Below are positions 17,101 to 42,034 of a stretch of 61,137 bases of DNA, piece after piece. Both the position numbers and the translations under genes were made by a program. Numbering within the stretch: the stretch's first letter is position 1; each line of letters begins with the position of its first letter. Origin of the DNA: a virus (taxonomy: Duplodnaviria; Caudoviricetes); the IMG/VR virus record IMGVR_UViG_3300020732_000001, positions 1 through 61,137 of that record. One strand, given 5' to 3'. Under the pieces are notes generated by a model, which worked only from the letters and a program-made list of their open reading frames with translations, made no database searches and was not told where the DNA came from.

Positions 17101-20100
17101 TCCAAAGATGCTGGTATTCCAGAGGGCAGTTCTTTTAGTCAATTTTCTGATTCAGAAGACGTTAAAAACTTGCGTAATTTTTTAACTAAAGGACCCAAAA
17201 AAGAAGAAGTCAAAGTAGAAAAAAAGCCAGCTGAAGAACATATTGAGCCAAACAAAGTTGAGCCAGTTACTCCAAAGACTATAGAAAAGTCTATTGAAAA
17301 AGCTCAATCTAGAGTAGATTACAAAAAAATCAAACAGGCAATTTCTAATCAATTTGATCAGGCCATCAAAAGGGCTACGATTCAAACTGAAAAAGAATGG
17401 GATGCATCAACTAAAGAACGAGATAGTTTTGTAAAGATTGACATTCCTGGTGATGGTAAGTTCAAGGTGGCAAACAATGTAGAACGTCTTGAAGATCTTA
17501 AGAAAAAACTTATTAACGCTGCCGCTCCAAAGACTGGTGGCATTCCAAGAGCACCAAGTGCTGCAAGTGTATCGTCTGCTGAGACTGCATTTAAGAACTT
17601 TGTTGAAGAGCAAGATTTTGAGAATGCAATTAAATACGCTGAACTCAAAGGCTTGGATATGAAAGAAGTCAAGTTGACTCCAGATCAGCGGAAACAGTTA
17701 GACAATTACATCAAAAATCCAAAGGCATTTGAAGAAGAGAAAGCTGAAGTTGAAAAACAATCAGAAGATTATGTAGAAGCTCAAAAAGAAAATGCTGTTG
17801 AAAAATTAAATCTTAAAGAAGAAAAACCAAAGGCTGGTCAAGTATTCCCAGCACCAGCAGTTAATAAAAAATTGTTTGAGGGCACAGATAAGCCCATTAC
17901 AAAAAAACCAAATTGGATGGATGAAGGAGTATGGAATCAATATGAACGATTCCAGGCTGGTAATTTCTCTATGCCAACTGCATCATTTCAAGGTGCTGAA
18001 CGGATTAAAAAAGGAAATGAGTTTAAAAAAGAAGCAGAGAAAAATTACAAAGAAGCGGCTAGGATATTCCTTAGATTTGCATCAACGGCTAAATTCCCAA
18101 CGGCTCGTGCTGATAAATTGATATTGGAAAAAGGTTCTTACATCCCAGCCAGACCAATTGAAAAGAAAATTATTGGGGCATTTACTGAGCCAAATATTAA
18201 GAAGGCTGTATATGCATTGGTAGATCCAAAAGAAGTTAGAGAGGCTTTGCGTGGTGCTGTATTAGAACCAGATAAAACAGTCTCGACTGATGGCAAACGA
18301 TTATTGATTGTTAATACCAAGAACGATGTTACTAAACCAACGATTGTTGATAAAGATGGCAAAGTAATTGAGGCTCAGATTGCTCCCTACGAGAAGGTAT
18401 TAGAAAAGTATAAAGACTTAAAACCAAGTCATGGCGTTAATGCTGAAGCGTTGGGGGACTATGCTCGTGGAGTTATCAAAGGACACAAGTATGCTGGTAA
18501 TACTTTTTATCCAATTACTTTGGTTGTGGGTAAAGAGAATTACACATTTAATGCAGAGTTTATTGAAGACCTAACAAACGCTTTTAGACAGTTGGGATAT
18601 CCAGAGTTCAATATAGGAATTCAAGATAAGATGTTGAAAGCGGTATCGCCAGATGGAAAAGTAACACAGTTACTCATGGGTATGACAGAGCGTGATACCA
18701 ACTTCATGCCATTTAATATTAATAACGGATATCCAAGTTTTACGAGCGATGAAAAATTGGGTGAAGAGTATTTTATTGAAGGTGAAGCTACGGATATCTC
18801 TAACCGTAAGTTGCTTGCTGGCCCTGTAGATGAGTTATCTGAACAAGAACAAGTCAAGTTAGAAGAGCATTACGGTGCAAAACGCAACACCAGAGAGTTT
18901 TTTACTCAATTAAAAGATGATGTTATTCGTGCTACAAACGAAGGTATTGGCATTATTGATAGTGCAATTCGAGATATCATTGCCAAGATTCAAGCTGGGG
19001 TTTTAGCCGTAGCAATTATCTTTAATCCTGCCTACATGAGTGAAGGCAACTATTTCATGATGCCTACCAAAGAAAGGTCGGTCAGGATTGAACAGGTCAG
19101 AGCTGAAGTTCCTGCCGAAGCAGAAGGTATGTCAGAGGCTGGTAAACATGCTTACTCGATGATTGCACCTGCACAAAGTGGCACTAAGTACTTTACGATT
19201 GTTGACAAACCTACTGCAACAGCGTATGTCTTTAACCCAGATGGTAGTTTAAAGATCTCAAGAAAAGTATTGTTAGGTAAAGCGTTTGGCGATTCTTATG
19301 TTGGTCAAGTTCAATTTGAACAAAATAGACAGACTCCAGCAGGAATGTTTACCATTAATGCTGAAAAAGGTAATCTGCGTGACTACGATGGCAAGACTAT
19401 CTACACATTAAGTGGTGATAAAGGTGCGTTCCATGTGGCTGTCATGCATACGGTCTATACTAAAGAGTCAGATGGTAAAGCTAGATTAAATGCATTGACT
19501 ACTCCTGGTGCTGCCGACTCTCGTTATTCGCATGGCTGTATCAACGGCACTCCTGAGTTTATGCAGTCCATCAACGATGAGAAGATGGATCAATCTCATA
19601 TGTTTGTTGTGCCTGATAATCAGGCTAAAGTTGATGATTTCTTGGCAAACAATGTTCCTAAAGATGACTTGGATCGCATGGAAGTCAAGCCAGTTGAAAG
19701 ACAGGTTGTAGAAGAGCGTGAACAGCAAAAAGTGGTTAGTGGTGCACAGCAAGATTTATTAGCGACTAGAGAAGAAGAAATCAAAGCCCCAAAGACGCAA
19801 GCAGAAATTAATCGTGAACGCCAACAGGCTAAAAAAGCAAGCCAAGAAACGCCTGAAGAAGATTATCGTGGAACATTTACAGATAACCTTGATGAACGCA
19901 GATTTTTCAAAGAAGAAAGTTTATCCAATAAACAACATGCTTCTGAACAGGCTCGCAAAGTAAAAACTTCTATTACCAAAATTTTAAGACAAATGGTAAA
20001 GGGTAACTTTGGTATTGATACCCAAAGAGCACTTACAGAACTTTTATCTGAAAGAACCATTACCAATATAGAAAAGAAATATGCTAGGGTAAGAATTGAT

Positions 20101-23100
20101 TCTGCCGATGCATTCTTGGCTAATGCTATTCGTGATGCTGAATTGCATAGAGCTTATCCAAAAGATGAACGTTATGGTCTAAAGCCAGAGGTATTGGCTG
20201 TAATTAAAGAAGTTAATCGTAGATTTCCAAATGTTTTAGATGGCTTAAGGTTAAGCATTAAGAAACCCAATGAACGTGGATCAACAGGTAACTTTGCACC
20301 ATTATCAAGAATAGTGACGTTATATAAAGACACATCAGGCACATCAGAGCCTAAAACATTTAGACATGAAATTATGCACTCACTTGAGCAGATGATGCCA
20401 GATGATGTGTACATGAAAGTTATTAATAACTGGGCTAAGTCTTTAGCGAAAGCAATTGAAAACTATACAGATAAAAAACATCAAAAATATTTTGATGCTG
20501 TTTTAGATTATGTCAATAATCCAAATGAGCAAACATATCAAAAAGCAAAAGATGCTTTGCCTAATTACAACATGTATCAATACATTAATCCTTCTGAGTT
20601 CTGGGCGGTTAATGCTGAGAAACTGTTTGGGCAGAAGCTAGGCGGTCGTTGGGAAAACTTTAAACGAGCCGTACAAAAACTATTTGAAGGATTAAAGAGT
20701 GTCTTTGGTTTTGATAATCGTTATGGTGTGCATGTGGCGTTTGATCGTTTATTCAAGGGAGATCTTGAGCGTGGCGAGAGTAGACGTATGCTGGTGGATT
20801 ATCTGTATCGTAACAATATAACCAAAGAAACCATATTAGAGAATGTAGATTCAGATGAAATTAATGAATTGTCTGAGAAGCATGGCATCAATGAGCCACC
20901 AGAAAAATTATCGCCATCTGTTGTAGATTGGATTACAGGTGGTAAACAATATGTAAAAAATCTAAAAAATAATTTAAAAGAATCACCAAGAGGCGTAGCT
21001 GTTCAGATGACTGGTAATCTGGATAATGCATTGCTTGGCTTTAGAATCAAAACAACTGACTTTACGGCAGGTCTTGCAGCTGCCGATGCTGAAAAGTATG
21101 GTCGTAAGTTAGAAAACGGCATGAACCAAGCGATTGCTGCAGTAGCAAGCAATCAAGCATTAAGAGCAATTCGTATAGCTTCTAGGGTTGTGGCCAGAGG
21201 AAAATTGGTATTTGATCCTCAATGGCAAATGTTTAGAGCTCAAGAAGACAAGCATTCAATGGCAAACATTTTCCGATTAAGAAAAGAATTTGCTAAACGA
21301 GTTGGTAAATCAGAGGCTAAAAAAGCAATTCAGGGTTTCTTTGAGGCATTACGTTCTAAGAGTATTATTCAAGAGTATGTAGATAGACAAGCCGATTTAG
21401 AAAAATACTTAGCAGAACAAGCTGATCCAACAACTAATGCTAAACGCCAAGCTAAATTAATTAAATTAATTAATGAAGCTCAAGATGATTTGAAAAACGT
21501 AAGTATTGCATTAGAAAAAGTTAGATTGAGTGATGATGCTATTTATGACTTAATTAAGATGGGTGAAAAACATCCAGAGTTAGTGGAGATTCGTAAGAAT
21601 TGGAATGCTATTAATCAAAATATGATTAATATGATGGAGTTTGCCAGCATTATTAGTGAAGAACGTGCCAATACTTTGCGTAATATCAAGGACTATGTTC
21701 CTTGGAATCGTATTATGGATGAGCAAAAAGATGCTCGCAATCCTGTTTGGCTATATACCTCTAAAGGCGTACGAAACGTCAATAGAGAACCAATTTTTAG
21801 ACGAGGAGCAACGAACAGGGATATTGATGACATCATTGATAACATGACGCACAACGTCATGATGATTACTCGCAATGTCATTAAAAACTATGCTGCTAAT
21901 CGTATTGCTCAGGAGTATGCGGAGCGTGATGAAAATGGCAAAATTAAAACTTACCCAGCTGAAGATTTTAGTAAAGGTATTGTTAAAATTTTAGTCAACG
22001 GACAAAAAGTTAATGTCAAGATTCTTGATATGTATGTGGCTCAATCCGTTATTGGTGCTGAGAATGTTCAAATTCCACTTAATGGTATTATGTCGTTCTT
22101 TGCAAACCTTGCAAGAAGAGCGATTACTTTAAGCCCTAAATTCCAAGTTAAACAAGCATTCCAAGATGCGTTTACTGCGGCTATGGTTACTGGTGTTAAA
22201 AACCCTGCTGCTTTGTTAGGGAATGTCTTTGTATCGTTTGCCAAAGGGTTAAATCCCAACGATGAAGTCATTAATACATTAAAAGATTTTGGTGTGGGCG
22301 GTTTTTCTGGCATATCTAGAACACAACAAGGGCGTTACTCTCAAGAAGTTGGCATGTTAAATGATAATCGTCTTTCTCAATTAACTGGACTACTTGACCA
22401 TATTGCTGATGCTTCTGACTATTCACAGCGTATGGCCGCTTACAATCGAGTAATGGCTGAGACTAATGGTGATGTGCGAGCTGCGATTCTTGCTGCGACC
22501 AATGTGATTGACTTTGAAAAACATGGTGCTGGCATAACAATGCAATTTTTAAATCGTACCATTATGTTTATGAATGCTTATGCCCAACAGATCGATGTAT
22601 TAACTCAAGCGTTAATGCTCAATCCTAACGGTGGTCTGCGTGGCATTGATCGTCAGCAAGCTTTAATTCGATTAGGAACAGCTGTAGCAATGATGGCTGG
22701 TATGACATTGCTTTATACATCTTGGGCTGGTGATGACGATGAGTATCAAAAGACAGATGACCGTACTCGTATGCGTAACATTATTCTTCCTAAAGGCAAA
22801 ACTGGCTTTGATCAAACTTATTACATTCCAATTAATACTTCAGCCTCATTCCTGGTCAAAGGCATGATTGAGATGTTACATAACAAATATATTAATGAAT
22901 CATTTAAAGATAAGATTGATGGCACAAGATTTCGTTCAGCCATGTTAAAAGGATTTGTTGATTCTATGTTAGGACCTTTGACTTCTGGACCAGTACCAAC
23001 AGCGTTCAGAGCACCTACTGAAATTATATTGAACCATAACTTTTATACTGGTGGTAAGGTAACTCCAGACAGTATGAAGAACTTAGCAGCATTTCGACAA

Positions 23101-23658
23101 TTCAATGCCAATACATCTGAACTGGGTAAATACATTAGCAGAGCTACTCAGAATCCATTAGATCCAGAACAAAGAATGTTAAACCCAATGGAAGCAGATC
23201 ATGTCATGCGTGGCTTAGGAGGTTCTGTATCAGCTGTTGCCATGTATTTATCTAATATGTTATCTGGCAATCATCCTACGCAAGATGACCGTAAGAATCC
23301 ATTGTATGGAGACTTTATTGCACCTGAGATTCCAAAAGGTAACGAAGAGTTATTCTATGACCTTAAATCTAGGGCTGAAGTAGCTCATGACACAATGACA
23401 GATATGTATCGAAATCAGCATACAGAAGAGGCTCAGAACTGGCAAAAAGCTCATGAAGGATTAATTAAAGCTTATGGATTTACAGAAAGTGCTGGTAAGT
23501 CTTTAGCAGCATTAAATAAAGAAATTCAAAGAACGGCTGACCTTCCAGAGGCTCAGATGACTAAAGAACAGAAAAAAGCCAGAATGATTGAACTGCAAAA
23601 AACAAAACAGATTATTCTTGATAAGACAATCGAGTTTAGAAAGTTAGCTGGACTGTAA
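14182..23658 (+). CDS. Giant polyvalent virion protein with clamp-like, L,D-transpeptidase-like and zincin-like domains and an LPD38-like C-terminus
   Basis: 3158 aa. TDGKRL..FNAEFIEDL..LLMGM; TPAG..SHGCIN; RHEIMH..SEFWA. Occupies the last ejection-gene position. Confidence 0.7.
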   Translation: MPSVSIPYVGVVNFPDDMSHEDISNAIQNHILPNAPHPAATQPGSTSLADTLQQSIFAPVQALFPSVGTEPSTMVGSLAKGVQSLKDIGAQAKLSDLIPLQELDKENYGPNFERAPTTGPQSRENLLATREKVNQYLGQLEQSKANAQAIDAKYGVDPLSKKITALEQTKDFKDASTWEQTKKIGSELLSNFTDIPEYIANVGLSSLPQSIAMAVASKVGASAGITGAMVAGGASSAFMEYGNEYVDLREQGFTHEQANDKAAVKSGIIGLLDAVSLNSAGKVAEKIFGGTRQALKETAKDIGKEIPKQAALGAAGEGFGSYLSNQPVNPRAVMEEALGEVFGAPGEAMSTYQGKRAQQIQNQEAPVVKPEPKGTVTIGPSTPPVPLITEADLEEEPSGRPPVLPTLPHTLEEIMDKGEPVETKQEAEKAHSDGDTVYGFHEQDEEHPVLIKDIDQLKGYTPDQLMVVPKEEKPKEQRKKESPIASSTTYNVKTEDAGTFLTQVFRNKDGSIDIMDEDGQVIKNNKEFAKGKSDAELLAYHFEPLGYESHEVVPKEETPAEVKKEEEQKEEESTSNIVTGVGVNPETINKVIDARSAGKAKDYIKKHGQEFFDQALKDGLIRTFTVGKNTFVTTTDEGDDLYYTNTKTDDGKYSLKEVQDAVDSVKGEWEQFADADKFIKKYPDMLTSAWKSGFLRTSASGTNLFAVYNEEDLERAKQNQADEENPIEMFKQNIAERAAEEKAREEEKAKAPKTKAELNRERQQAKKEAAEKKKQEEEVKKKQLDEEAEMKMPEEIEAEELKDKIAPNETKKINATNYISKSTNAEKLNGWSKIDTYSSIILVGQEDPNVKEFTQHTWTFNPKSGTDAMRAQNLVQVWTQENPLKKEEPKGKIKIEPVVKKTQAEINKERQEAKKNATKKPQDFTNDELDLAAKIVYNGNGIEYEKSVLPILKKLQDAGLIKLQGTKVFLTQESKDAGIPEGSSFSQFSDSEDVKNLRNFLTKGPKKEEVKVEKKPAEEHIEPNKVEPVTPKTIEKSIEKAQSRVDYKKIKQAISNQFDQAIKRATIQTEKEWDASTKERDSFVKIDIPGDGKFKVANNVERLEDLKKKLINAAAPKTGGIPRAPSAASVSSAETAFKNFVEEQDFENAIKYAELKGLDMKEVKLTPDQRKQLDNYIKNPKAFEEEKAEVEKQSEDYVEAQKENAVEKLNLKEEKPKAGQVFPAPAVNKKLFEGTDKPITKKPNWMDEGVWNQYERFQAGNFSMPTASFQGAERIKKGNEFKKEAEKNYKEAARIFLRFASTAKFPTARADKLILEKGSYIPARPIEKKIIGAFTEPNIKKAVYALVDPKEVREALRGAVLEPDKTVSTDGKRLLIVNTKNDVTKPTIVDKDGKVIEAQIAPYEKVLEKYKDLKPSHGVNAEALGDYARGVIKGHKYAGNTFYPITLVVGKENYTFNAEFIEDLTNAFRQLGYPEFNIGIQDKMLKAVSPDGKVTQLLMGMTERDTNFMPFNINNGYPSFTSDEKLGEEYFIEGEATDISNRKLLAGPVDELSEQEQVKLEEHYGAKRNTREFFTQLKDDVIRATNEGIGIIDSAIRDIIAKIQAGVLAVAIIFNPAYMSEGNYFMMPTKERSVRIEQVRAEVPAEAEGMSEAGKHAYSMIAPAQSGTKYFTIVDKPTATAYVFNPDGSLKISRKVLLGKAFGDSYVGQVQFEQNRQTPAGMFTINAEKGNLRDYDGKTIYTLSGDKGAFHVAVMHTVYTKESDGKARLNALTTPGAADSRYSHGCINGTPEFMQSINDEKMDQSHMFVVPDNQAKVDDFLANNVPKDDLDRMEVKPVERQVVEEREQQKVVSGAQQDLLATREEEIKAPKTQAEINRERQQAKKASQETPEEDYRGTFTDNLDERRFFKEESLSNKQHASEQARKVKTSITKILRQMVKGNFGIDTQRALTELLSERTITNIEKKYARVRIDSADAFLANAIRDAELHRAYPKDERYGLKPEVLAVIKEVNRRFPNVLDGLRLSIKKPNERGSTGNFAPLSRIVTLYKDTSGTSEPKTFRHEIMHSLEQMMPDDVYMKVINNWAKSLAKAIENYTDKKHQKYFDAVLDYVNNPNEQTYQKAKDALPNYNMYQYINPSEFWAVNAEKLFGQKLGGRWENFKRAVQKLFEGLKSVFGFDNRYGVHVAFDRLFKGDLERGESRRMLVDYLYRNNITKETILENVDSDEINELSEKHGINEPPEKLSPSVVDWITGGKQYVKNLKNNLKESPRGVAVQMTGNLDNALLGFRIKTTDFTAGLAAADAEKYGRKLENGMNQAIAAVASNQALRAIRIASRVVARGKLVFDPQWQMFRAQEDKHSMANIFRLRKEFAKRVGKSEAKKAIQGFFEALRSKSIIQEYVDRQADLEKYLAEQADPTTNAKRQAKLIKLINEAQDDLKNVSIALEKVRLSDDAIYDLIKMGEKHPELVEIRKNWNAINQNMINMMEFASIISEERANTLRNIKDYVPWNRIMDEQKDARNPVWLYTSKGVRNVNREPIFRRGATNRDIDDIIDNMTHNVMMITRNVIKNYAANRIAQEYAERDENGKIKTYPAEDFSKGIVKILVNGQKVNVKILDMYVAQSVIGAENVQIPLNGIMSFFANLARRAITLSPKFQVKQAFQDAFTAAMVTGVKNPAALLGNVFVSFAKGLNPNDEVINTLKDFGVGGFSGISRTQQGRYSQEVGMLNDNRLSQLTGLLDHIADASDYSQRMAAYNRVMAETNGDVRAAILAATNVIDFEKHGAGITMQFLNRTIMFMNAYAQQIDVLTQALMLNPNGGLRGIDRQQALIRLGTAVAMMAGMTLLYTSWAGDDDEYQKTDDRTRMRNIILPKGKTGFDQTYYIPINTSASFLVKGMIEMLHNKYINESFKDKIDGTRFRSAMLKGFVDSMLGPLTSGPVPTAFRAPTEIILNHNFYTGGKVTPDSMKNLAAFRQFNANTSELGKYISRATQNPLDPEQRMLNPMEADHVMRGLGGSVSAVAMYLSNMLSGNHPTQDDRKNPLYGDFIAPEIPKGNEELFYDLKSRAEVAHDTMTDMYRNQHTEEAQNWQKAHEGLIKAYGFTESAGKSLAALNKEIQRTADLPEAQMTKEQKKARMIELQKTKQIILDKTIEFRKLAGL

Positions 23659-24006: not shown

Positions 24007-24057
24007 TTGACATGATTCATTATATCATGCAAACTATAGTCTGATTAACTGCTAGGA
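24007..24057 (+). promoter_or_regulatory. Sigma70-like promoter followed by AACTGCTAGGA leader motif
   Basis: TTGACA 24007-24012; -10 candidates CAAACT or TATAGT; motif at 24047-24057. Confidence 0.6.
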
Positions 24058-32327: not shown

Positions 32328-32812
32328 AAATAGAATTAAATCGTCATGAAATGTTAATGTGCGAATTATTTGGTTCTATTCGCAGAAAAAACGCTATGCA
32401 ATTTAATTATGATCGCCAGGTCAGCAAACAAGATCCATATGACATGGACATTGATGGTTTTATGGGAGAGTTTGTAGTAGCCAAATATTTAAATATTATG
32501 GTAGATACTTCAATCAATGAAAAAAAGAATCCAACAGATTTATATTTCAATGCTTATTCAGTAGATGTAAAGACTACTCGTAATCCAAAAGGTGGAGTTT
32601 ACGTCACAGAATATCATCGTAAATCGCCATGTGATTACTATATACAAGTTGTAATTAATGGTAATGTTGGTCATATAACTGGCTGGATTGATAAATATGA
32701 TTTATTTTCCAAAGCTGAATATATATCTGGATCTCATCCATCTTATAAATTAAATCAAGAAAATCTTTTACCTATAGAATTACTATATGTACCGAAACAA
32801 ACAACTTCTTGA
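32324..32812 (+). CDS. Putative PD-(D/E)XK nuclease-like protein
   Basis: GFMGEFVV..D..VDVKTT. Confidence 0.55.
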   Translation: MKIELNRHEMLMCELFGSIRRKNAMQFNYDRQVSKQDPYDMDIDGFMGEFVVAKYLNIMVDTSINEKKNPTDLYFNAYSVDVKTTRNPKGGVYVTEYHRKSPCDYYIQVVINGNVGHITGWIDKYDLFSKAEYISGSHPSYKLNQENLLPIELLYVPKQTTS

Positions 32813-33083
32813 ACTGGTTCGTGTTATTCCTTGTCAAAACTGTGGCCTACAGGATGGAACGGTGGTCGCTGCTCATTCTAATCAACTTCGAGATGGTAAA
32901 GGTCGTGGAATCAAAGCTCACGATTATAGGGTGGCAGCTTTATGTTACAAATGCCATAGTGAATTAGATCAAGGTAATAGACTTTCTAAAGAAGAACGAG
33001 TAGAAATGTGGGAAGAAGCCCACAGAAATACGATTGGTTGGTTATTTGAAAATGATTATGTTAAAATTTGTTTAGTTCCTTAA
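32787..33083 (+). CDS. DUF1364/HNH-like Zn-binding protein
   Basis: PCQNCG..VVAAHSN..GRGIK..LCYKCH..D. Confidence 0.7.
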   Translation: MYRNKQLLELVRVIPCQNCGLQDGTVVAAHSNQLRDGKGRGIKAHDYRVAALCYKCHSELDQGNRLSKEERVEMWEEAHRNTIGWLFENDYVKICLVP

Positions 33084-33110
33084 TTTGAGTTATGTCTTGT
33101 TCTGGAATTA

Positions 33111-33152
33111 GAGCTAGGTTTGGGTTACCGCCCTGTCTAGCTCGTTTTTTTT
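33111..33152 (+). terminator. Rho-independent terminator of the recombination/accessory operon
   Basis: GAGCTAG..CTAGCTC stem followed by a T8 run. Confidence 0.75.
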
Positions 33153-33191
33153 GAGGTTCGATTTTTAGTGCCACAGCCAAAAAACAATATG

Positions 33192-33221
33192 TTGACACTT
33201 TTTTAAAATTTCGTCTATACT
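33192..33221 (+). promoter_or_regulatory. Near-consensus sigma70 promoter driving sRNA-1
   Basis: TTGACA-18 nt-TATACT. Confidence 0.8.
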
Positions 33222-33227
33222 TAGTGG

Positions 33228-33354
33228 GTACACCCCATGTACTACCGTCACCGTGACGCATAAACTCCTAGCAGGGTTAATCAAAACTGACGGTAGGATC
33301 CTCCCTGATCCCTCCCCAGAACCCTAGACTAATCATCTGGGGTTCTTTCTTTTT
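33228..33354 (+). ncRNA. Putative trans-acting antisense sRNA (sRNA-1)
   Basis: Own promoter and terminator, no credible ORF. Stems GTACA/TGTAC, CTACCGTCA/TGACGGTAG and GGATC/GATCC. The loop carries the complement of the leader motif. Confidence 0.7.
33318..33354 (+). terminator. Rho-independent terminator of sRNA-1
   Basis: AGAACCCTAGA/TCTGGGGTTCT (1 G-U) followed by TTCTTTTT. Confidence 0.75.
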
Positions 33355-33358
33355 GTGC

Positions 33359-33392
33359 TTGCAAAATATTTTAAAATGGTTTAATCTATAAT
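33359..33392 (+). promoter_or_regulatory. Sigma70-like promoter driving RNA-2
   Basis: TTGCAA-17 nt-TAATCT, overlapping a TATAAT at 33387-33392. Confidence 0.65.
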
Positions 33393-33395
33393 CTC

Positions 33396-33865
33396 AACTG
33401 CTAGGAGTGCGTCACGGAATGAATCAACTCCGTGATAACAATTTGTGTATTTTGTATATACGTTAATTTAACGTGTATAGATTTATGCCATTTTGTTTAC
33501 GCACTCCTAGCACGATGATTTAGGTCTATCGGTCTGAGTATGTGTGAAAGTTGCCCTTGAAGTTGAGTAGAACGGCAAAAAGACATACGTTTACGTTCTT
33601 CCTAAATTAGCGTGATAGTGAGCAAAGAAGATTGTTTAGGCTCAAGGTGTGGAAGCGTGGTCTTTACTCTGTCTGAGAACGATTGAGAACAATAGAGATC
33701 ATTCGGTGACACTTAAACGAACTCGTAGTACAGAGTAGAAAGCACCGATGTGTGAACTAGACTACCAATGGTTCATTAACTTGATATGAAGTAAGCGACC
33801 GAAAGGATATCGAGTTGAGTTTTCCTTCAATCCCATGCTGTGGGGTTGGGGGAAACCTCACTTTC
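33396..33865 (+). ncRNA. Large multi-stem structured RNA or 5' leader (RNA-2)
   Basis: At least 8 helices with many plus-strand G-U wobbles; no long ORF. Confidence 0.65.
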
Positions 33866-33894
33866 AATTTCGTTTCGCTCCCTCAAGGATATAT

Positions 33895-34101
33895 ATGAAA
33901 GAAATCGTAGAACAGAGAATTAAAGAGTTGGAACGGTTGGTTGAGATCACACCGATAAATAAGAGTTTCAGTCTTCAGTCGAGACTGGTTGAGGCGAAAC
34001 ATATCTTAGATCTAATTAATCAAGAAGAGAAGTATGTATCAGAAAGTGTAATGAATGAAATACAAGATGCTTTATATGGAAAAATGAAAGGAAAGAAATG
34101 A
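33895..34101 (+). CDS. Hypothetical protein
   Basis: RBS AAGGA before ATG 33895. Confidence 0.65.
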   Translation: MKEIVEQRIKELERLVEITPINKSFSLQSRLVEAKHILDLINQEEKYVSESVMNEIQDALYGKMKGKK

Positions 34102-34627: not shown

Positions 34628-34654
34628 TATACTGAAATTTCCAACTGCTAGGAG
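34625..34654 (+). promoter_or_regulatory. Extended -10 promoter followed by AACTGCTAGGAG leader motif
   Basis: TGaTATACT 34625-34633; motif at 34643-34654. Confidence 0.6.
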
Positions 34655-34659
34655 AATAA

Positions 34660-35514
34660 ATGAAGAAAGTAAATATACTCGCCATTCGTATTGATGGCGG
34701 CACTCAATCTCGTGATAAATTAAATGAAGATGTAGTAAAAGAATATGCTGATTGCATGAAAGATGGTGCAATATTTCCACCGATTACAGTCTTTTTCGAT
34801 GGCTCTGATTACTGGTTAGCCGATGGTTTTCACAGATACTTTGCTAATAAATCTTTAGGTAATGTAGCCCTTGACTGCGATGTCAAAGAAGGCACTTGTA
34901 GGGATGCAGTCTTACATTCCTTTGGTGCAAACGGCAAGAATGGTCTACCACCAACGGCCAAAGAAAAACGCAATATTGTGATTAAAATGATCCAAGATGA
35001 AGAATGGGGTAAATGGTCAAATAAACATATTGCAACCATTGTCCATGTATCCTCAATGACTGTGGGTAGAATCAGAAAAGAATTAGAAGAAGAGCCGAAA
35101 GAAAAAGTCACCTATCTTCGTCAAGGCGTAGAAGTAGAAGCAAAAAAACCAAAGAAGAAAAAAGCTGAAAAGAAAAAAGAAGAACCTATAGCAGAACCAG
35201 TAGATCCTGTAGTGGTAGATCCTGTAGCTCCAGATCAATCTTTAAATCCATTGGAAATCAAGATTGATGAACTTAGTCGAGACATTATTGATTACATTGA
35301 AGAGATCACAAAACTTAAGGATGTGATTGCAACTAAACGATACGATGCCACAGAGTTTGAGCAAGAGGATGCTTTGATGACGATCCAAGAACTTCGTGAG
35401 GAAATTAAACTTAAAGATAGAGAAATTAAATCATTGCGTGATAGTCGTGATATGTATCAAGAACGCAATGCTGAACTCATTAAACAACTCAAAGCTTATC
35501 AGAAGAAAAAATAA
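34660..35514 (+). CDS. ParB/Srx-like N-terminal domain protein with HTH and coiled coil
   Basis: GGTQSR..FPPITV..WLADGFHRY; WSNKHIA..VSSMTV HTH. Confidence 0.75.
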   Translation: MKKVNILAIRIDGGTQSRDKLNEDVVKEYADCMKDGAIFPPITVFFDGSDYWLADGFHRYFANKSLGNVALDCDVKEGTCRDAVLHSFGANGKNGLPPTAKEKRNIVIKMIQDEEWGKWSNKHIATIVHVSSMTVGRIRKELEEEPKEKVTYLRQGVEVEAKKPKKKKAEKKKEEPIAEPVDPVVVDPVAPDQSLNPLEIKIDELSRDIIDYIEEITKLKDVIATKRYDATEFEQEDALMTIQELREEIKLKDREIKSLRDSRDMYQERNAELIKQLKAYQKKK

Positions 35515-37001: not shown

Positions 37002-37834
37002 TTGAATTTATTAACTTCGCAAGAGATTACGGCTTAATTCTTAACAATGTTATCTATGATAAATGGGTGGCAACTCCGACCGAAGATCATCCAAGATCCA
37101 GTAATGGTCGCTATAAACTTTTAGGTGATGTAGGATGGGTGCAAAACTGGGCAACGATGGAAAAGCCAGTTACTTGGTTTGCTGATGGAATCAATCAACA
37201 GGAAGTTAAGCAACGAATTAAAGAATCAAATGACAATCGGCAGAACAATGCAAAAAAAGCAGCAGATCGAGCTGCGTGGATACTCAGCCAGACGAGTCTG
37301 GACAGGCATCCATATCTAGAAAGAAAAGGATTCCCCAACGAATTGGGGAATGTTTGGATCAAAGACGATAGACAAATTTTAGTAGTTCCTATGAGGCATC
37401 AAGATAGAATAGTGGGCTTGCAACTCATCAATGACGAGGGGGAAAAAAAGTTCCTGTATGGTCAGACCTCTAAAGGGGCAACTTTCTCGATGAATGCAAA
37501 AGGAACTCCGATATTCTGCGAGGGTTTCGCTACTGGGCTTTCGATTCGAGACATTATGCAAAGCATGAATTTGCCGTATTGCATTCACATTTGCTTTAGT
37601 GCAAGTAATATGCAGTTCGTAGCAAGGAACATCAGGAGTGGGATCGTTATCGCTGATCACGACTCCAATGGTGTCGGAGAACGATTCGCCAAAGACACAG
37701 GCAAACCTTATTGGCTCTCTGAAGCAGTTGGGGAAGATTTTAATGACTATCATATGCGTGTCGGCAAGTTCAAGGCTTCACAGGCTTTAAAGAAGATGCT
37801 AATAGCCTTAAAAAACGAGCCTCAATCTGTCTAA
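36998..37834 (+). CDS. Toprim-domain primase
   Basis: HPYLERKG, LVVPM..GLQLI..KKF, CEGFATG, ADHD, DFND. Confidence 0.85.
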   Translation: MIEFINFARDYGLILNNVIYDKWVATPTEDHPRSSNGRYKLLGDVGWVQNWATMEKPVTWFADGINQQEVKQRIKESNDNRQNNAKKAADRAAWILSQTSLDRHPYLERKGFPNELGNVWIKDDRQILVVPMRHQDRIVGLQLINDEGEKKFLYGQTSKGATFSMNAKGTPIFCEGFATGLSIRDIMQSMNLPYCIHICFSASNMQFVARNIRSGIVIADHDSNGVGERFAKDTGKPYWLSEAVGEDFNDYHMRVGKFKASQALKKMLIALKNEPQSV

Positions 37835-38048
37835 CTCGTTCTCTGGTCACACCAAAGCGAGATCCTACCTCGTTTAAAGTGTGACCTTCAGCTCGCAATC
37901 GCATCATCTGCCAGTATTTTTCTTTAAGATCATCCCTGTTTTTATAAAGACTAAAAAAGACTTCCTTCGTAGGGAAGTCCACCAATTTGTAGGGATTGTT
38001 ACCACCAACAAAAATCGGCACTCTGCCACCACATTGACTAAAATTCAT
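37770..38048 (-). CDS. Sigma-70 region 4-like HTH protein
   Basis: TLNEVGSRFGVTRERVRQIEAR. Confidence 0.8.
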   Translation of the reverse strand: MNFSQCGGRVPIFVGGNNPYKLVDFPTKEVFFSLYKNRDDLKEKYWQMMRLRAEGHTLNEVGSRFGVTRERVRQIEARFLRLLASSLKPVKP

Positions 38049-38205
38049 GGGGATCAACCTCGCAGTAATCAAAATCAACAACTTCTTCGCCTTTGTTTAA
38101 TTCAAGTTCATCCCAAGCATACTCTTCAGGATCTTCGCCATTTGGCACATCCACAGTAATGGTAACTTCTCTTTTAAGGTAATAAGTTACATCATATCGT
38201 TTCAT
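38038..38205 (-). CDS. Small acidic protein, 55 aa (not in ORF track)
   Basis: RBS GGAGG; MKRYDVTYYLKREV... Confidence 0.65.
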   Translation of the reverse strand: MKRYDVTYYLKREVTITVDVPNGEDPEEYAWDELELNKGEEVVDFDYCEVDPHEF

Positions 38206-38650: not shown

Positions 38651-38853
38651 ACAACCTCCACAATTCTAAATTCATCATAGGAATAAGGTTCTTCTAAATT
38701 CCCCTCTTGGTAATCGGCAATCGTGTCCTCAATAAAATCTTTGAGTTCAGCCTCTGCCTGTTCTTTCGTTTCATAAACAGTCGGCATACCTGTCTGGGCA
38801 TCATGCCAGACATTCTCCCAACCATAGACAAACTCTTGTTCAACAATAAACAT
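38641..38853 (-). CDS. Hypothetical acidic protein
   Basis: Start ATG 38853 follows AACTGCTAGGAG. Confidence 0.7.
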   Translation of the reverse strand: MFIVEQEFVYGWENVWHDAQTGMPTVYETKEQAEAELKDFIEDTIADYQEGNLEEPYSYDEFRIVEVVCE

Positions 38854-38860
38854 ATCATTT

Positions 38861-38929
38861 CTCCTAGCAGTTAAACGATTGCAAAATGGCAATCCCAATG
38901 CCCAATTAAGGGCATCAGGATTACAGCAC
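38861..38929 (-). promoter_or_regulatory. Intergenic hairpin element plus leader motif (copy 1)
   Basis: Long hairpin, then GATTGC/GCAATC hairpin, then AACTGCTAGGAG. Confidence 0.65.
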
Positions 38930-39118
38930 TTACCAATGCACTTGACTGTCTAAATCTTTGACATCTACATAGTCCTCTGCCCTTCTAAAAGAACCTATGT
39001 AAAAAGGATAACTATCTACTGTTCCCATATCACTATTCTTTAAACATTGAACAACATCAAGTAATGCAGTTTCTAATGATTCAATATCAGCAAAATACAT
39101 TTTGATTTCGAGTTTCAT
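38930..39118 (-). CDS. Hypothetical protein
   Basis: RBS GGAGG. Confidence 0.65.
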   Translation of the reverse strand: MKLEIKMYFADIESLETALLDVVQCLKNSDMGTVDSYPFYIGSFRRAEDYVDVKDLDSQVHW

Positions 39119-39810
39119 AAATCCTCCAATTCTGCATACTCTCGTTTAGATTCTTCCAACTCTTTTAACAATCTGGCTTTGTCTTTTTCTTCTGCCGTTT
39201 CGAGCTCTTTTTCAATCGCCTCAATTTCAGTTAAAAGATCATCCATTTTGTATTCTTTGATACTGTCGGAGATTCCGTATTGATCATCAATGTTTTTAGG
39301 TATGTTATTACGCACCCATTGAACATCATTTTGAATGTCATAACATTCTTCTAAATCGTTTTCCCAATAGCCACAGAACCCCATACCACCTTCATAATAG
39401 GTGGCTGAGACATCATAGCCTTGCTCAACAAGTTTTTGATAAATGCCACAGGGAGGACTCCAAGCCGTAGAACAATAAAAAGAAATGGTGTTTTCATTCG
39501 CCTCAAGATCGTAAGGTTTATTTTCGTAAACTGTTTCAATCTCCCATTTCGTGCCCCAATGCTGAACCCTCCAGTCCCACCAATTATCAGGCTTGATGGT
39601 CGGCTGATAGGCTAGAGCCTTTTCCTCTTCGGTCTTAGCATACTTCGCTACGATCTCTGGGTAGGTCTTTTTAACAGGAGTAACTGAGTAGTCTGGCTCT
39701 GGGTATATCGTGCCAAAGAACTTCCCTTCATTCCAAGCAGTTACTAATTTCTGAATCTTCTCTGGGTTATCGTGTGAGATAACTACATTGTTTTCGCACC
39801 AATTAGGCAT
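39115..39810 (-). CDS. DUF1281/YubB-like (MPNWC) protein
   Basis: MPNWCEN, WWDWRVQHWGTKW, TAWSPP, YYEGGMGFCG. Confidence 0.8.
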   Translation of the reverse strand: MPNWCENNVVISHDNPEKIQKLVTAWNEGKFFGTIYPEPDYSVTPVKKTYPEIVAKYAKTEEEKALAYQPTIKPDNWWDWRVQHWGTKWEIETVYENKPYDLEANENTISFYCSTAWSPPCGIYQKLVEQGYDVSATYYEGGMGFCGYWENDLEECYDIQNDVQWVRNNIPKNIDDQYGISDSIKEYKMDDLLTEIEAIEKELETAEEKDKARLLKELEESKREYAELEDL

Positions 39811-39991
39811 ATCTTTTTACCTCCTCTATTTCAGTTATTTGAAAATCATGTCCATCTGTTACATCACCATAATCGAAGTCGATTTCTCCGTCATAAATCA
39901 TTTTTTTGATTTGATCGACAGATTCACCTTCCACTTCTTTCATGTAATAAACTACCTCACTTGCGAAAGCATAAAATTTAGGCATTTGCAA
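39803..39991 (-). CDS. Hypothetical protein
   Basis: ORF track. Confidence 0.6.
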   Translation of the reverse strand: MQMPKFYAFASEVVYYMKEVEGESVDQIKKMIYDGEIDFDYGDVTDGHDFQITEIEEVKRYA

Positions 39992-40142
39992 TTTCCTTCC
40001 ATAATTCGTATGTTTGTTTTAATTTTGAATTGTCCATTTTCCAAAGTTTTTTTAAATATTCTTCAACGTCATTTAACTGTTCGATTGGATAAATTGATTT
40101 CATCATCCAAAATATTTCAAATTGATATTCATAATTACTCAT
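39978..40142 (-). CDS. Small hypothetical protein, 54 aa (not in ORF track)
   Basis: RBS GAGG; MSNYEYQFEIFW... Confidence 0.55.
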   Translation of the reverse strand: MSNYEYQFEIFWMMKSIYPIEQLNDVEEYLKKLWKMDNSKLKQTYELWKEIANA

Positions 40143-40350
40143 TTTGATATTCCTCAAAAAGTTTTGTTAAATGAATTTCAAGATAATGTAATTTACTAAT
40201 CTGTTCATCACAAAAATCTTGCATATCGTTAAATTCATTAAATCCATCTAATTTCATTCCTCTTAAATAAGTGTGTTTATCTAAGTTAATTAAATCAAAA
40301 TAGATTTCATTTACAGTTTCTAATAAAAGATTTTCAATCGACATTTTCAT
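40135..40350 (-). CDS. Hypothetical protein (AT-rich)
   Basis: RBS GAGGAG; start at 40350 or 40344. Confidence 0.6.
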   Translation of the reverse strand: MKMSIENLLLETVNEIYFDLINLDKHTYLRGMKLDGFNEFNDMQDFCDEQISKLHYLEIHLTKLFEEYQNE

Positions 40351-40621
40351 ACTCCTCTTCGTAATAAGCACAACTATAAAAAACAGGTTCAAAATCAATC
40401 GACAAAACTTTAGTTTCGTCATCTAAAAAATCGCCAATTTTAAGATCGGCAAATTCATCTTTCGTCATTGTCATATAAAGGCGATTGTCAATCCAAGAGT
40501 CCCAAAGAACTTCGTCAGGAACTCCCTTCTCTAAAATTCCGATCTGGACAGTTGTCGGATTGTTCCAATCGTCAGGTCGAATAAGCACATCATAGGCAGT
40601 TACCGTATAAACTCTTTTCAT
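40334..40621 (-). CDS. Hypothetical acidic protein
   Basis: ORF track. Confidence 0.65.
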   Translation of the reverse strand: MKRVYTVTAYDVLIRPDDWNNPTTVQIGILEKGVPDEVLWDSWIDNRLYMTMTKDEFADLKIGDFLDDETKVLSIDFEPVFYSCAYYEEEYENVD

Positions 40622-40877
40622 AGATCACCTGTAAGAACTTTAATTAGTTTAGGCTCGGTCTTGGTCTGGATACGCTTGAGGTTATTCCACCCCAAATAGT
40701 AATCAATCCATTCGCAAGCCTCCAAGAACGAGGGCAGAACATGGGAGGCGATCACCTCCCTTCGTTGGTTATAGATAATCGCTTGCATTAAAACCCCCCA
40801 GTCCTAAGAACCCAAATAAGGGCAAGCCCTGAACCCATCAAAGCACCAAATAAACACGCATAAAAAATATCTTTCAT
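40618..40877 (-). CDS. Two coupled small ORFs: 40877-40788 (29-aa hydrophobic) and 40788-40618 (56 aa)
   Basis: The first follows AACTGCTAGGAG; TAATG and ATGA coupling. Confidence 0.6.
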
Positions 40878-40885
40878 TTTTTAAA

Positions 40886-40960
40886 CTCCTAGCAGTTAAA
40901 GTTAATGATTGCCGAAAATGACAATCCCTAAACCCTCTAGAGAGGGCTTAGAGGTGGCAC
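40886..40960 (-). promoter_or_regulatory. Intergenic hairpin element plus leader motif (copy 2)
   Basis: Same layout as 38861-38929. Confidence 0.65.
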
Positions 40961-41368
40961 TTAGTGGCTCTCTTCTGTCTCTGGTGCTTGAGTAAACAAT
41001 TCAGGGAAAGCCGTAAAAAGTTTATAAGCGTTTGTTTGATCTGCTCTAGTGAAAGCCTGAGCAAGATAGAAAGCAAACGAGCCTTGATTCTGCATAATGT
41101 TGCATGACTCGAAGGCTTGAGCCTTTTGGATAGCGTTTAATTTCATAAGGTGATTCCTTTGTGAGTGAAAAAAATTGTCTGCTGAACTTTTGGAGAGAGA
41201 ATATAAAATTTGCTCTGGTGTAGGATCGTTGAGAGCCCACCACTCAAGACAGTTATATTTAGTGTTAAATCTGGCGATATCGTAAAGCGTAACATCAGCA
41301 TGAGGGGATTTAAAGGCGATTACTTGACCTTCAAATAGTGGTGTTGCTGTAAAGTTCGTTCCTCTCAT
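40961..41368 (-). CDS. Hypothetical protein, possibly a fusion of two genes
   Basis: Internal RBS and ATG at 41146, before a GSFA..LA.A..RAD..N..KL..AFPELF module. Confidence 0.65.
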   Translation of the reverse strand: MRGTNFTATPLFEGQVIAFKSPHADVTLYDIARFNTKYNCLEWWALNDPTPEQILYSLSKSSADNFFHSQRNHLMKLNAIQKAQAFESCNIMQNQGSFAFYLAQAFTRADQTNAYKLFTAFPELFTQAPETEESH

Positions 41369-41799
41369 GCTAGAGCCTCCTCTTTCTGGGTGATGTAATA
41401 GCCGATTGTGTGCCCTTTTTTATTGCCTTCCCATTGGACTTCTAAGCCGATCGCTTCGGCGATTCTACGCATGGACTCAATCCCACAACCTCCATTTAAG
41501 TAAACTGAGCCATCTGGCTTAATGAATAAGCCGTAATAGTTGGGGTGATAAGTGCCCTTCACTACCTTATCAGGAGTAGAGCCGTAATCCTCTAAGGGGA
41601 GATCTCTAACAAGGGCTTGAAGTGCCTCTTGGTGTTCACACTCTAGATAGTCTCCAAATACTGTGCCGATCATGTCATAGCCTCCACCATTACATTTATA
41701 AGAGTGCCCAGATCGTGAGGAAAGTTTGCAAATGTTATAGCCGTAAGTGTCTCGACCTCTGGAGACTGACCAAGTGATTTTAAGATGATTGATTTTCAT
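41365..41799 (-). CDS. Conserved phage hypothetical protein (GGGYDM..G / GGCG)
   Basis: First gene after the leader motif at 41809-41820. Confidence 0.75.
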   Translation of the reverse strand: MKINHLKITWSVSRGRDTYGYNICKLSSRSGHSYKCNGGGYDMIGTVFGDYLECEHQEALQALVRDLPLEDYGSTPDKVVKGTYHPNYYGLFIKPDGSVYLNGGCGIESMRRIAEAIGLEVQWEGNKKGHTIGYYITQKEEALA

Positions 41800-41808
41800 G
41801 TTTTTAAA

Positions 41809-41882
41809 CTCCTAGCAGTTGGTTAAAAATTGTGTCATGTATTGACCTCTTGATTTTCTTCTAGTGGTGTATTGACTGTCAA
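41809..41882 (-). promoter_or_regulatory. Divergent promoter region with direct repeats and leader motif
   Basis: Minus-strand TTGACA 41882-41877; TGTATTGAC at 41838 and 41868; CTCCTAGCAGTT 41809-41820. Confidence 0.55.
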
Positions 41883-42034
41883 GCGTTTTGATGTAAAAAA
41901 ACAAATTATTTTTGATCTGGGAAGTTAAGCCCAGGTGATAACTTTTGACCTGGTGAGTGAGGAGGTCGCAGATCGTTGCAATAAATAAAGAGAATGCCCT
42001 ATACTTGGGGTGTGAACATTCCGAGAATATACCT

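Follow-up and report, generated by a model that had tools for sequence, protein, structure and literature searches.

Why should two neighboring RNAs, encoded one after the other on the same strand of a phage genome, carry long stretches that are complementary to each other? This question is raised by an 813-bp non-coding gap (33084-33896) in the virus IMGVR_UViG_3300020732_000001, a complete IMG/VR viral contig with direct terminal repeats, whose whole 61,137-bp record is the window analyzed here. The gap is occupied by a module of two predicted plus-strand RNAs, a small RNA (sRNA) of ~127 nt, sRNA-1, and a longer structured RNA, RNA-2. The match between them is kept, with differing letters, in dozens of related phages, and it is for that reason very likely that the module, which lies ahead of the DNA-replication genes, is a genuine device for the control of one RNA by another.

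In the window, the antisense region of sRNA-1 (33251-33274, +) consists of an address (33251-33260, CCGTGACGCA), a TAAA bulge (33261-33264), and a conserved seed (33265-33274, CTCCTAGCAG). Address and seed are the reverse complement of nucleotides 33408-33417 (TGCGTCACGG) and 33398-33407 (CTGCTAGGAG), respectively, which gives a duplex of 20 bp (10 + 10 bp) with the 4-nt bulge on the sRNA side. The target (33398-33417, +) lies at the predicted 5′ terminus of RNA-2, where it mimics the ribosome-binding motif AACUGCUAGGAG and adds a private extension. An earlier reading of the letters by a model (the original prediction) had named this loop, its target, and a competing cis partner at 33499-33512, all of which proved exact in coordinates and letters. 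By an arithmetic estimate, ~1e-6 bipartite 10 + 10 complements would be expected by chance between RNAs of 127 nt and 475 nt. When a 41-nt loop probe was compared with both strands of the 61-kb window, the best partner, its own antisense strand excepted, was the RNA-2 5′ end (−38.6 kcal/mol), followed by a site at 21881 (−34.1 kcal/mol) and then two minus-strand leaders (−32.1 and −30.3 kcal/mol). A shuffle test of the full-length duplex energy (observed −58.6, shuffles −61.0) was uninformative, given that long sequences yield large loose duplexes.

A helicase search recovered 37 related viral loci (65-81% identity; given L-numbers below), 28 of which matched a profile of the sRNA-1/RNA-2 region at E ≤ 0.01; upstream DNA is missing from L003, L005, and L007, and L028-L033 are the most remote. 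With a cut-off of 50 bits, 24 loci remained, which together with the window yielded 19 distinct sequences with a common layout. The first unit opens with a promoter and a 5′ hairpin, continues with a variable stretch and the invariant CCTAGCA, and closes with a terminator preceded by one or two hairpins; a second promoter follows, and 6-11 nt beyond it come GCTAGG and a second variable stretch. The variable stretches of sRNA-1 and RNA-2 are complementary within each phage and different between phages, as seen in the window (CCGTGACGCA and TGCGTCACGG), L037 (CCGATGCCCTA and TAGGACATTGG), and L004 (TCTAGCCCTGT and ACAGGGTTAGA). Bulges and internal loops differ in place among the relatives, the match in L015 being a contiguous 18-nt stretch. 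The complementarity on which the original prediction depended is kept in relatives, and because it is kept there with different letters, which we regard as the decisive evidence, we take it not to be the product of chance.

Duplex energies predicted for this 19-sequence set averaged −31.5 kcal/mol for cognate and −21.8 kcal/mol (standard deviation (sd) 4.5) for non-cognate pairs, and in 12 of the 19 cases the cognate outranked all others of the 15 distinct RNA-2 ends. We enlarged the set with a pattern of the conserved −10 region and core, which found 71 stretches in IMG/VR and, with the earlier loci, gave 57 distinct modules; 16 of these, which lacked a GCTAG at a distance of 90-190 nt on the downstream side, were dropped as chance matches or incomplete contigs, and the remaining 41 came down to 35 with distinct variable regions. 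Across the 35 pairs, cognate duplexes averaged −30.9 kcal/mol (sd 3.8) versus −22.0 kcal/mol (sd 4.3) for non-cognate ones, and −15.1 versus −8.9 kcal/mol after removal of the common core. None of 100,000 partner permutations reached the observed total, with or without the core. In the full matrix, the cognate was best in its row in 19/35 cases and in its column in 25/35, cognate energies were at or below −27 kcal/mol in 30/35, and a crude 4 kcal/mol criterion separated ~31 mutually non-cross-reacting groups.

The first of the two RNAs has the appearance of a complete transcription unit. Its sigma-70-type promoter (33192-33221, +; TTGACA, 18 nt, TATACT) agrees with the consensus at 11 of 12 positions; of the 35 relatives, 22 share the −35 element TTGACA and 28 have an 18-nt spacer, the −10 element in this enlarged set being preset by the search pattern. 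From its predicted start to the U-tract of its terminator, sRNA-1 spans 33228-33354 (+) and folds at −38.8 kcal/mol (z-score −4.66 versus 200 shuffles). The intrinsic terminator (33318-33354, +) comprises an 11-bp stem (hairpin 33318-33346) and a T-tract, and compensatory changes affect 6 of 10 stem pairs in the alignment of 37 sRNA-1 homologues. The CCTAGCA core is invariant in 19/19 helicase-derived sequences. Of the 31 sRNAs folded (four mis-delimited sRNAs excluded), 30 leave the core unpaired with a probability of 0.5 or more, and it is typically drawn as a CUAGCA hexaloop. The CUAG of this loop conforms to YUNR, the U-turn motif of antisense loops that pair quickly.

A second promoter (33359-33387, +; TTGCAA, 17 nt, TAATCT), under the scan cut-off and read by eye, precedes RNA-2. 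A TTGCA-type −35 element and a −10 element of TAATCT, TAACCT, TATTCT, or TATACT occur at the same position in nearly all 35 relatives, again as judged by eye. It is this conserved promoter, with a predicted start at ~33394-33396, that places the target at the very 5′ end of RNA-2. With the promoter and co-varying terminator of sRNA-1 on one side and the conserved promoter of RNA-2 on the other, the claim of two separate tandem units is borne out at the level of prediction.

The arm that sRNA-1 would bind also has a partner in cis. In domain 1 of RNA-2 (33396-33513, +), helix P1 pairs 33399-33412 with 33499-33512 (+), the latter arm (ACGCACTCCTAGCA) being the reverse complement of the former and hence the cis competitor of sRNA-1; helix P2 pairs 33412-33418 with 33429-33435 around a conserved loop (ACUGAAACAAUU), and P3 is an A/U-rich hairpin. 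In this three-helix domain, typical of the window's subfamily, the P1 3′ arm lies ~100 nt downstream of the 5′ arm, and the pairing with sRNA-1 covers the 5′ strand of P1 as well as that of P2. Compensatory double changes were found at 15 of 26 predicted pairs in domain 1 (11 sequences), and within the five window-type sequences all 11 compensatory pairs fall in P1 and P2. The 5′ domain of other relatives is a single ~60-nt hairpin in which the GCUAGG core is unpaired and toehold-like. When the first 150 nt of RNA-2 are folded to minimum energy, 31/35 modules have at least 70% of their target nucleotides paired. Since the cis and trans partners overlap on the 5′ arm, the two pairings exclude each other and compete, just as had been claimed, and both co-vary across relatives. 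The companion claim, of a second anti-leader sequence within the 3′ arm, held for the three-helix domain 1 subfamily (10/19) and failed for the short-hairpin majority, where the core is unpaired. A 15-codon leader-peptide open reading frame (ORF) at 33419 was rejected as it is not kept in relatives.

Cofolding of the window RNAs gave a change in free energy on binding (ddG) of −18.6 kcal/mol with nascent RNA-2 of 45 or 75 nt and of 0.0 with the complete domain 1, such that the trans duplex would be favored only in a kinetic window. In this model, at least, the antisense control of a nascent RNA put forward in the original prediction finds support. Cofolding with full-length RNA-2 left the freed 3′ arm only weakly paired elsewhere, with no specific downstream switch found. 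An sRNA-dependent terminator was likewise not identified, no alternative terminator fold appearing in the cofold; the sole terminator-like hairpin within RNA-2 (33840-33861) lies 440 nt from the target.

How address, target, and cis arm travel together can be read from very close relatives. Compared with L004 and L006, the window is about 94% identical in the upstream ORFs and 99.5% identical in the RNA-2 body, with identity falling to 41-45% in the sRNA-1 antisense region, 54-72% in the RNA-2 5′ arm and P2, and 72% in the RNA-2 3′ arm. L037 and L011 share one address on different downstream DNA: L037 has the window-type RNA-2 body, and in L011 the alignment with the window reaches no further than ~150 nt into RNA-2. 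This island of divergence, together with the shared address on different bodies, indicates from the sequence comparison that address, target, and cis arm move or diversify as one unit of ~260 bp.

What would such a unit control? In at least nine modules, RNA-2 (330-470 nt) leads straight into the motif and the ParB-like ORF, and a scan of 1,500 nt revealed no terminator-like site in most of the modules that have sufficient sequence on that side, a count that covers modules in general rather than each of the nine or more. Given this direct run, mostly without a terminator, the simplest view of RNA-2 in those phages is that of a 5′ leader to the replication genes.

With modest confidence, we read sRNA-1 as a same-strand, tandem antisense regulator that uses a private address for negative control of RNA-2. 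It would be a separately transcribed and terminated small RNA of a freshwater phage, pairing through its seed and hypervariable address with the first 20-25 nt of RNA-2, which, from its own promoter just downstream, would form the structured 5′ leader of the ParB-like/helicase/primase block. On nascent RNA-2, sRNA-1 would win; after the 3′ arm is made, both states would be about equal in energy. Binding might refold or destabilize the leader, for example through an approximately two-turn duplex cleavable by RNase III, and the replication-gene transcript would thereby be turned down. An address private to the lineage would limit this control to the phage's own kind and make of the module an RNA-based specificity group, and the seed alone would probably also damp translation of other genes that bear the motif.

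Several points weigh against this interpretation. The permutation test treats related sequences as independent, and both CCTAGCAG and the −10 element were preset by the pattern that gathered the enlarged set. Five of the 35 cognate duplexes are weak (L057 −22.9, L023 −23.3, L081 −23.8, L083 −24.1, and L074 −26.9 kcal/mol), the first four being at the non-cognate level, and in L057 (identical to L035) the sRNA address is mismatched to its own RNA-2. This locus has the RNA-2 5′ end of L015/L055 with another sRNA-1 address (duplex −22.9 versus −34.3 kcal/mol), and may be a recombinant or escape variant. A G-U test for strandedness revealed no asymmetry, with the opposite strands pairing equally well (−30.9 versus −30.9 kcal/mol; 20 better, 15 worse; Wilcoxon p 0.78; 754 Watson-Crick versus 54 G-U pairs), so it is the promoters and terminators by themselves that carry the plus-strand, RNA-level reading. 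In the window, moreover, three small ORFs and the terminator-like hairpin at 33840-33861 intervene between RNA-2 and the ParB-like gene, and window RNA-2 may for that reason be a discrete RNA rather than a leader. Both RNAs and both 5′ ends are predictions from sequence, and the direction of the effect could be repression, stabilization, or titration.

Titration deserves particular attention given the wider reach of the seed. The 8-nt core CCUAGCAG, fixed among relatives (seed CUCCUAGCAG), is the complement of the extended ribosome-binding motif AACUGCUAGGAG, which precedes the ParB-like/helicase/primase genes and several minus-strand genes across the phage group; AACTGCTAGGAG stands 5′ of the gene upstream of the helicase and of 1-4 minus-strand genes in nearly all related loci. 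Allowing at most one mismatch, CTGCTAGGAG occurs eight times in the window versus 2.1 expected (0/100 shuffles reach eight), with three copies inside the RNA module and the remainder 4-9 nt 5′ of start codons. The sites outside the module include 10-nt matches to sRNA-1 at 34645-34654 (+), before the ParB-like gene (34660-35514) that is followed by the helicase and primase, and at 38861-38870 (−), before a small minus-strand gene; two 14-nt matches in which TTTA follows the motif, at 40886-40899 (−) and 41809-41822 (−); and a one-mismatch copy at 24049, likewise before a start codon. The seed thereby matches the ribosome-binding motifs of 4-6 window genes. It had been proposed that the bulged TAAA extends pairing to the minus-strand leaders, which is correct for two of the three in the window (40886-40899 and 41809-41822, where CTGCTAGGAGTTTA is present) and incorrect for the third (38861), where only 10 nt match. 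Nor is the fit conserved: 18 loci hold 50 motif sites 5′ of a start codon, at which the contiguous match to the phage's own sRNA-1 averages 10.0 nt (range 6-14), and the window's two 14-nt matches are the maximum. Given these ~10-nt matches and the lack of conservation of the TTTA extension, the invariant core is best explained as the seed for a regulon of ribosome-binding sites, with the address apparently tuned to RNA-2 only.

If that regulon were the principal business of sRNA-1, the RNA-2 5′ end could be a decoy that soaks it up and sets a threshold or timer for repression of the AACUGCUAGGAG genes, an alternative, already raised in the original prediction, that we consider unlikely. RNA-2 does have the features of a target mimic: its 5′ end copies a 12-nt motif of an mRNA site exactly (AACTGCTAGGAG, 33396-33407 versus 34643-34654) and is predicted to bind more strongly (−38.4 versus −16.8 to −26.4 kcal/mol for the mRNA sites). 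In the distant relative L027, the seed sits in a hairpin loop with no extended RNA-2 target seen, and the seed function may thus be the older one. Prophage-encoded target-mimic RNAs such as AgvB are known (PMC12197685). AgvB titrates a host sRNA, whereas sRNA-1 and RNA-2 are both encoded by the phage, as co-varying neighbors. A sponge acting on a common sRNA pool would bring no private benefit, which leaves the joint diversification of address and target within DNA that is otherwise 94-99.5% identical unexplained, and the burial of the target in a cis stem in 31/35 modules would be odd for a pure decoy. A trans inhibitor and its cis target, on the other hand, are expected to diversify together, as exemplified by plasmid incompatibility and the heteroimmunity of P1 and P7, and a shared-pool sponge is not; it is on this ground that we prefer negative control of RNA-2.

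The L027 locus is of some interest in itself. Its non-coding region exceeds 1 kb (1170-2265), the loop that holds the seed belongs to a plain hairpin, and a tRNA-like element at 1667-1782 scores 33.7 bits with the Rfam tRNA model (ARAGORN reported none there). L027 also carries two copies of a CGUACUCC...CAAG...GGAAG motif, which forms the RNA-2 body in other relatives.

We regard it as very unlikely that the module is one read-through transcript in which the loop (a), the 5′ arm (b), and the 3′ arm (c) switch between a:b and b:c in cis, in the manner of an attenuator and with no trans RNA. The three segments do lie on one strand within 260 nt and co-vary, and the transcript ends are predicted ones, but a strong co-varying terminator and a conserved promoter separate a from b. 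Least credible, to the point that we would scarcely expect it, is a DNA-level element (protein or recombination sites, or a cruciform at a replication origin next to the A/T-rich palindrome at ~33456-33480), as nearly all-Watson-Crick, strand-symmetric complementarity just ahead of replication genes might suggest, since protein sites would keep their sequence whereas here ~31 sequence versions keep only the pairing, and one partner falls exactly in the exposed part of a unit bounded by promoter and terminator, the other at a predicted start of transcription.

The genes that carry the motif showed further features in their leaders. In related loci, though not in the window, we observed canonical hammerhead ribozyme motifs of type I (a 6-7-bp stem I, then CUGAUGA, stem II, GAAA, stem III, and a U-H cleavage site) that end 8-12 nt 5′ of AACUGCUAGGAG, for example on the minus strand of L003 (leaders of the genes at ~7119, 7902, and 8251) and in L007, L008, L009, L054, L064, L065, L083, L084, and L108. 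There are 27 distinct sequences, 24 of which are followed by the motif, and no match was obtained in five shuffles of 1.27 Mb; Rfam gave no match in L003 5000-8500 at E ≤ 1. Hammerheads flanking phage genes, possibly cutting long transcripts into single-gene mRNAs, have been described (PMC3088659). In the relatives, they would put the sRNA-1 seed site at a processed 5′ end. Where relatives carry hammerheads, the window leaders at 38871-38935 (−) and 40896-40935 (−) have a conserved element of ~55 nt (a G+C hairpin, GGGAUUGCC...GCAAUC, and a terminal UUUAAC just 5′ of the motif), also found in L003, L005, L007, L008, L017, L019, and L022; an Rfam scan of 38700-42000 gave nothing relevant, and this element was without a match. 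It could be a further processing or self-cleaving element. A third leader type, with repeated GAGNCCGCAAA, occurs in some relatives.

The RNA-2 body (33514-33878, +) is strongly structured and ends in a 16-bp hairpin (33812-33862) with a T-rich tail; domain 1 and body together (33394-33870, 477 nt) fold with a z-score of −5.69. Rfam returned no family at gathering score across the whole window, and only four sub-threshold, chance-level matches in 33000-34000 at E ≤ 10. The body and the short spacer to the first ORF (33513-33896) are 99.5% identical (2/384 differences) in L002, L004, and L006, and nearly identical in L037. Nearby coding DNA differs by 1-18% from that of L002, L004, and L006, and the near-invariance of 33513-33896 could possibly reflect strong per-base constraint, a recent sweep, or a role at the DNA level.

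Across the group, the RNA-2 body is modular. In 16 of 23 related loci scanned (14/15 and 2/8), its position is taken by an orphan Rfam motif, the Betaproteobacteria-1 RNA (RF02932; 86.8-100.5 bits, against a gathering score of 49.4 bits), and elsewhere by other conserved elements; the window RNA-2 body gave no match to Betaproteobacteria-1, even at E ≤ 10. The element lies directly 3′ of the 5′ hairpin targeted by sRNA-1 (for example at 5043-5162 in L022 and 4662-4778 in L038), a position that would give it a first regulatory context, as part of a phage replication-gene leader gated by an upstream sRNA. A Betaproteobacteria-1 pattern found 24 stretches in bacterial genomes, about half of which look genuine (Variovorax, Comamonas, Rubrivivax, other Burkholderiales, and phage-like contigs from metagenome-assembled genomes), adjoining primase or HNH genes with no CCTAGCAG sRNA upstream. 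A contig scan of 185,579 species genomes with the sRNA-1 and RNA-2 pattern gave 0 matches. The main text of Weinberg 2017 (PMC5737381), presumably the source of the Betaproteobacteria-1 motif, does not mention it.

Upstream of the RNA module lies an HNH-like ORF of 98 a.a (32787-33083, +; phrog_131, E 4e-25), and in most relatives listed an ORF of 95-98 a.a stops just 5′ of the sRNA-1 core. An RNA-guided HNH nuclease was considered and rejected, given that this ORF has only 98 a.a and that the supposed guide matches the phage's own genome. On the 3′ side of the gap, three small ORFs are followed by the ParB-like gene, the helicase, and the primase, with the terminase, portal, and structural genes located elsewhere in the window. 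The ORFs scanned, which were part of the window's total, included an ERF protein, a PD-(D/E)XK nuclease, RusA, and a small sigma-70 region-4 protein, and no integrase, repressor, or other lysogeny gene was among them. The sigma-70 region-4 protein (103 a.a, 37770-38081, −; Pfam PF04545, E 2.8e-9) is encoded at the end of the minus-strand gene block and may be a phage transcription factor. A 3,158-a.a ORF at 14182-23658 (+) had no PHROG match and presumably encodes a giant virion or internal protein, by analogy with related podoviruses. A tRNA scan of the whole window found none. By the large terminase (TerL), the closest isolates are the Pelagibacter phages HTVC027P and HTVC023P (~57% identity), and the intergenic region had no blastn match among 50,697 phage records. 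All public runs listed as containing the stretch are freshwater or lake DNA metagenomes, with no RNA run among them.

A bolder proposal, which we hold only tentatively and think doubtful as a whole, is that these apparently virulent freshwater phages possess an RNA-only specificity-group system. A fixed seed would address a set of genes, and a hypervariable address would co-evolve with the replication-gene leader, such that each lineage would turn off, or set the timing of, the replication modules of its own genome and of superinfecting genomes identical to it, with relatives left untouched. At least ~31 natural orthogonal pairs would exist, exchanged as a ~260-bp cassette and in many phages gating the Betaproteobacteria-1 RNA. 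The ~31 predicted orthogonal sRNA/toehold pairs offer a natural set that is directly testable.

Among known systems, the c4 RNA of the P1 and P7 immI region is a close parallel: there too, an antisense RNA of a phage lies upstream of its target and shares its strand. In the window, sRNA-1 (33228-33354) and its target (33398-33417) are both on the plus strand, in the order seen in the C4 family. However, c4 and its target start out in one transcript, from which c4 is excised. Unlike c4, sRNA-1 has its own predicted promoter and terminator, and its main target is not an antirepressor operon's ribosome-binding site but the 5′ terminus of a leader that is long and structured; the extended target is the 5′ end of a non-coding leader without a conserved ORF. 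The Rfam C4 family (presumably RF01695) had no gathering-score match in the window and was not among the E ≤ 10 matches in 33000-34000. In c4, the complementary stretches are thought to lie in loops, the RNA acts at a ribosome-binding region, and sequence differences give heteroimmunity (PMC12197685).

The CI RNA of satellite phage P4 resembles sRNA-1 as a same-strand antisense RNA that pairs in the leader of its own replication genes. In P4, seqB of CI RNA pairs with seqA and seqC, up- and downstream in the replication-gene leader, and so keeps the genes off (PMC4825925). Processing of the leader yields the P4 RNA, which in the lysogenic state makes transcription terminate prematurely, whereas sRNA-1 looks like a separate unit with one extended target and short seed sites, and has no Rfam match.

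In ColE1 (RNA I/RNA II) and pT181, a long, structured RNA needed for replication is bound in its 5′ part by a small RNA while still nascent, the timing of folding decides the outcome, and loop sequences set the incompatibility groups; the regulators come from the opposite strand and are fully complementary. Unlike these, the regulator here is encoded in tandem on the same (+) strand, such that the complementarity had to evolve and be maintained; every base pair would be kept by selection, which gives an unusually clean comparative signal. As for the priming role of ColE1 RNA II, the sole hint of a counterpart in RNA-2 is its position ahead of the ParB-like, helicase, and primase genes. In our assessment, sRNA-1 works like c4, CI RNA, and ColE1 RNA I but is outside those families, because it has no Rfam match, has its own predicted promoter and terminator, targets a 5′ terminus, and is not encoded on the opposite strand. 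A few temperate coliphages and plasmids are known to use antisense control with heteroimmune specificity, and the same logic now appears in a large uncultured group of freshwater phages related to the HTVC023P/027P-type pelagiphages.

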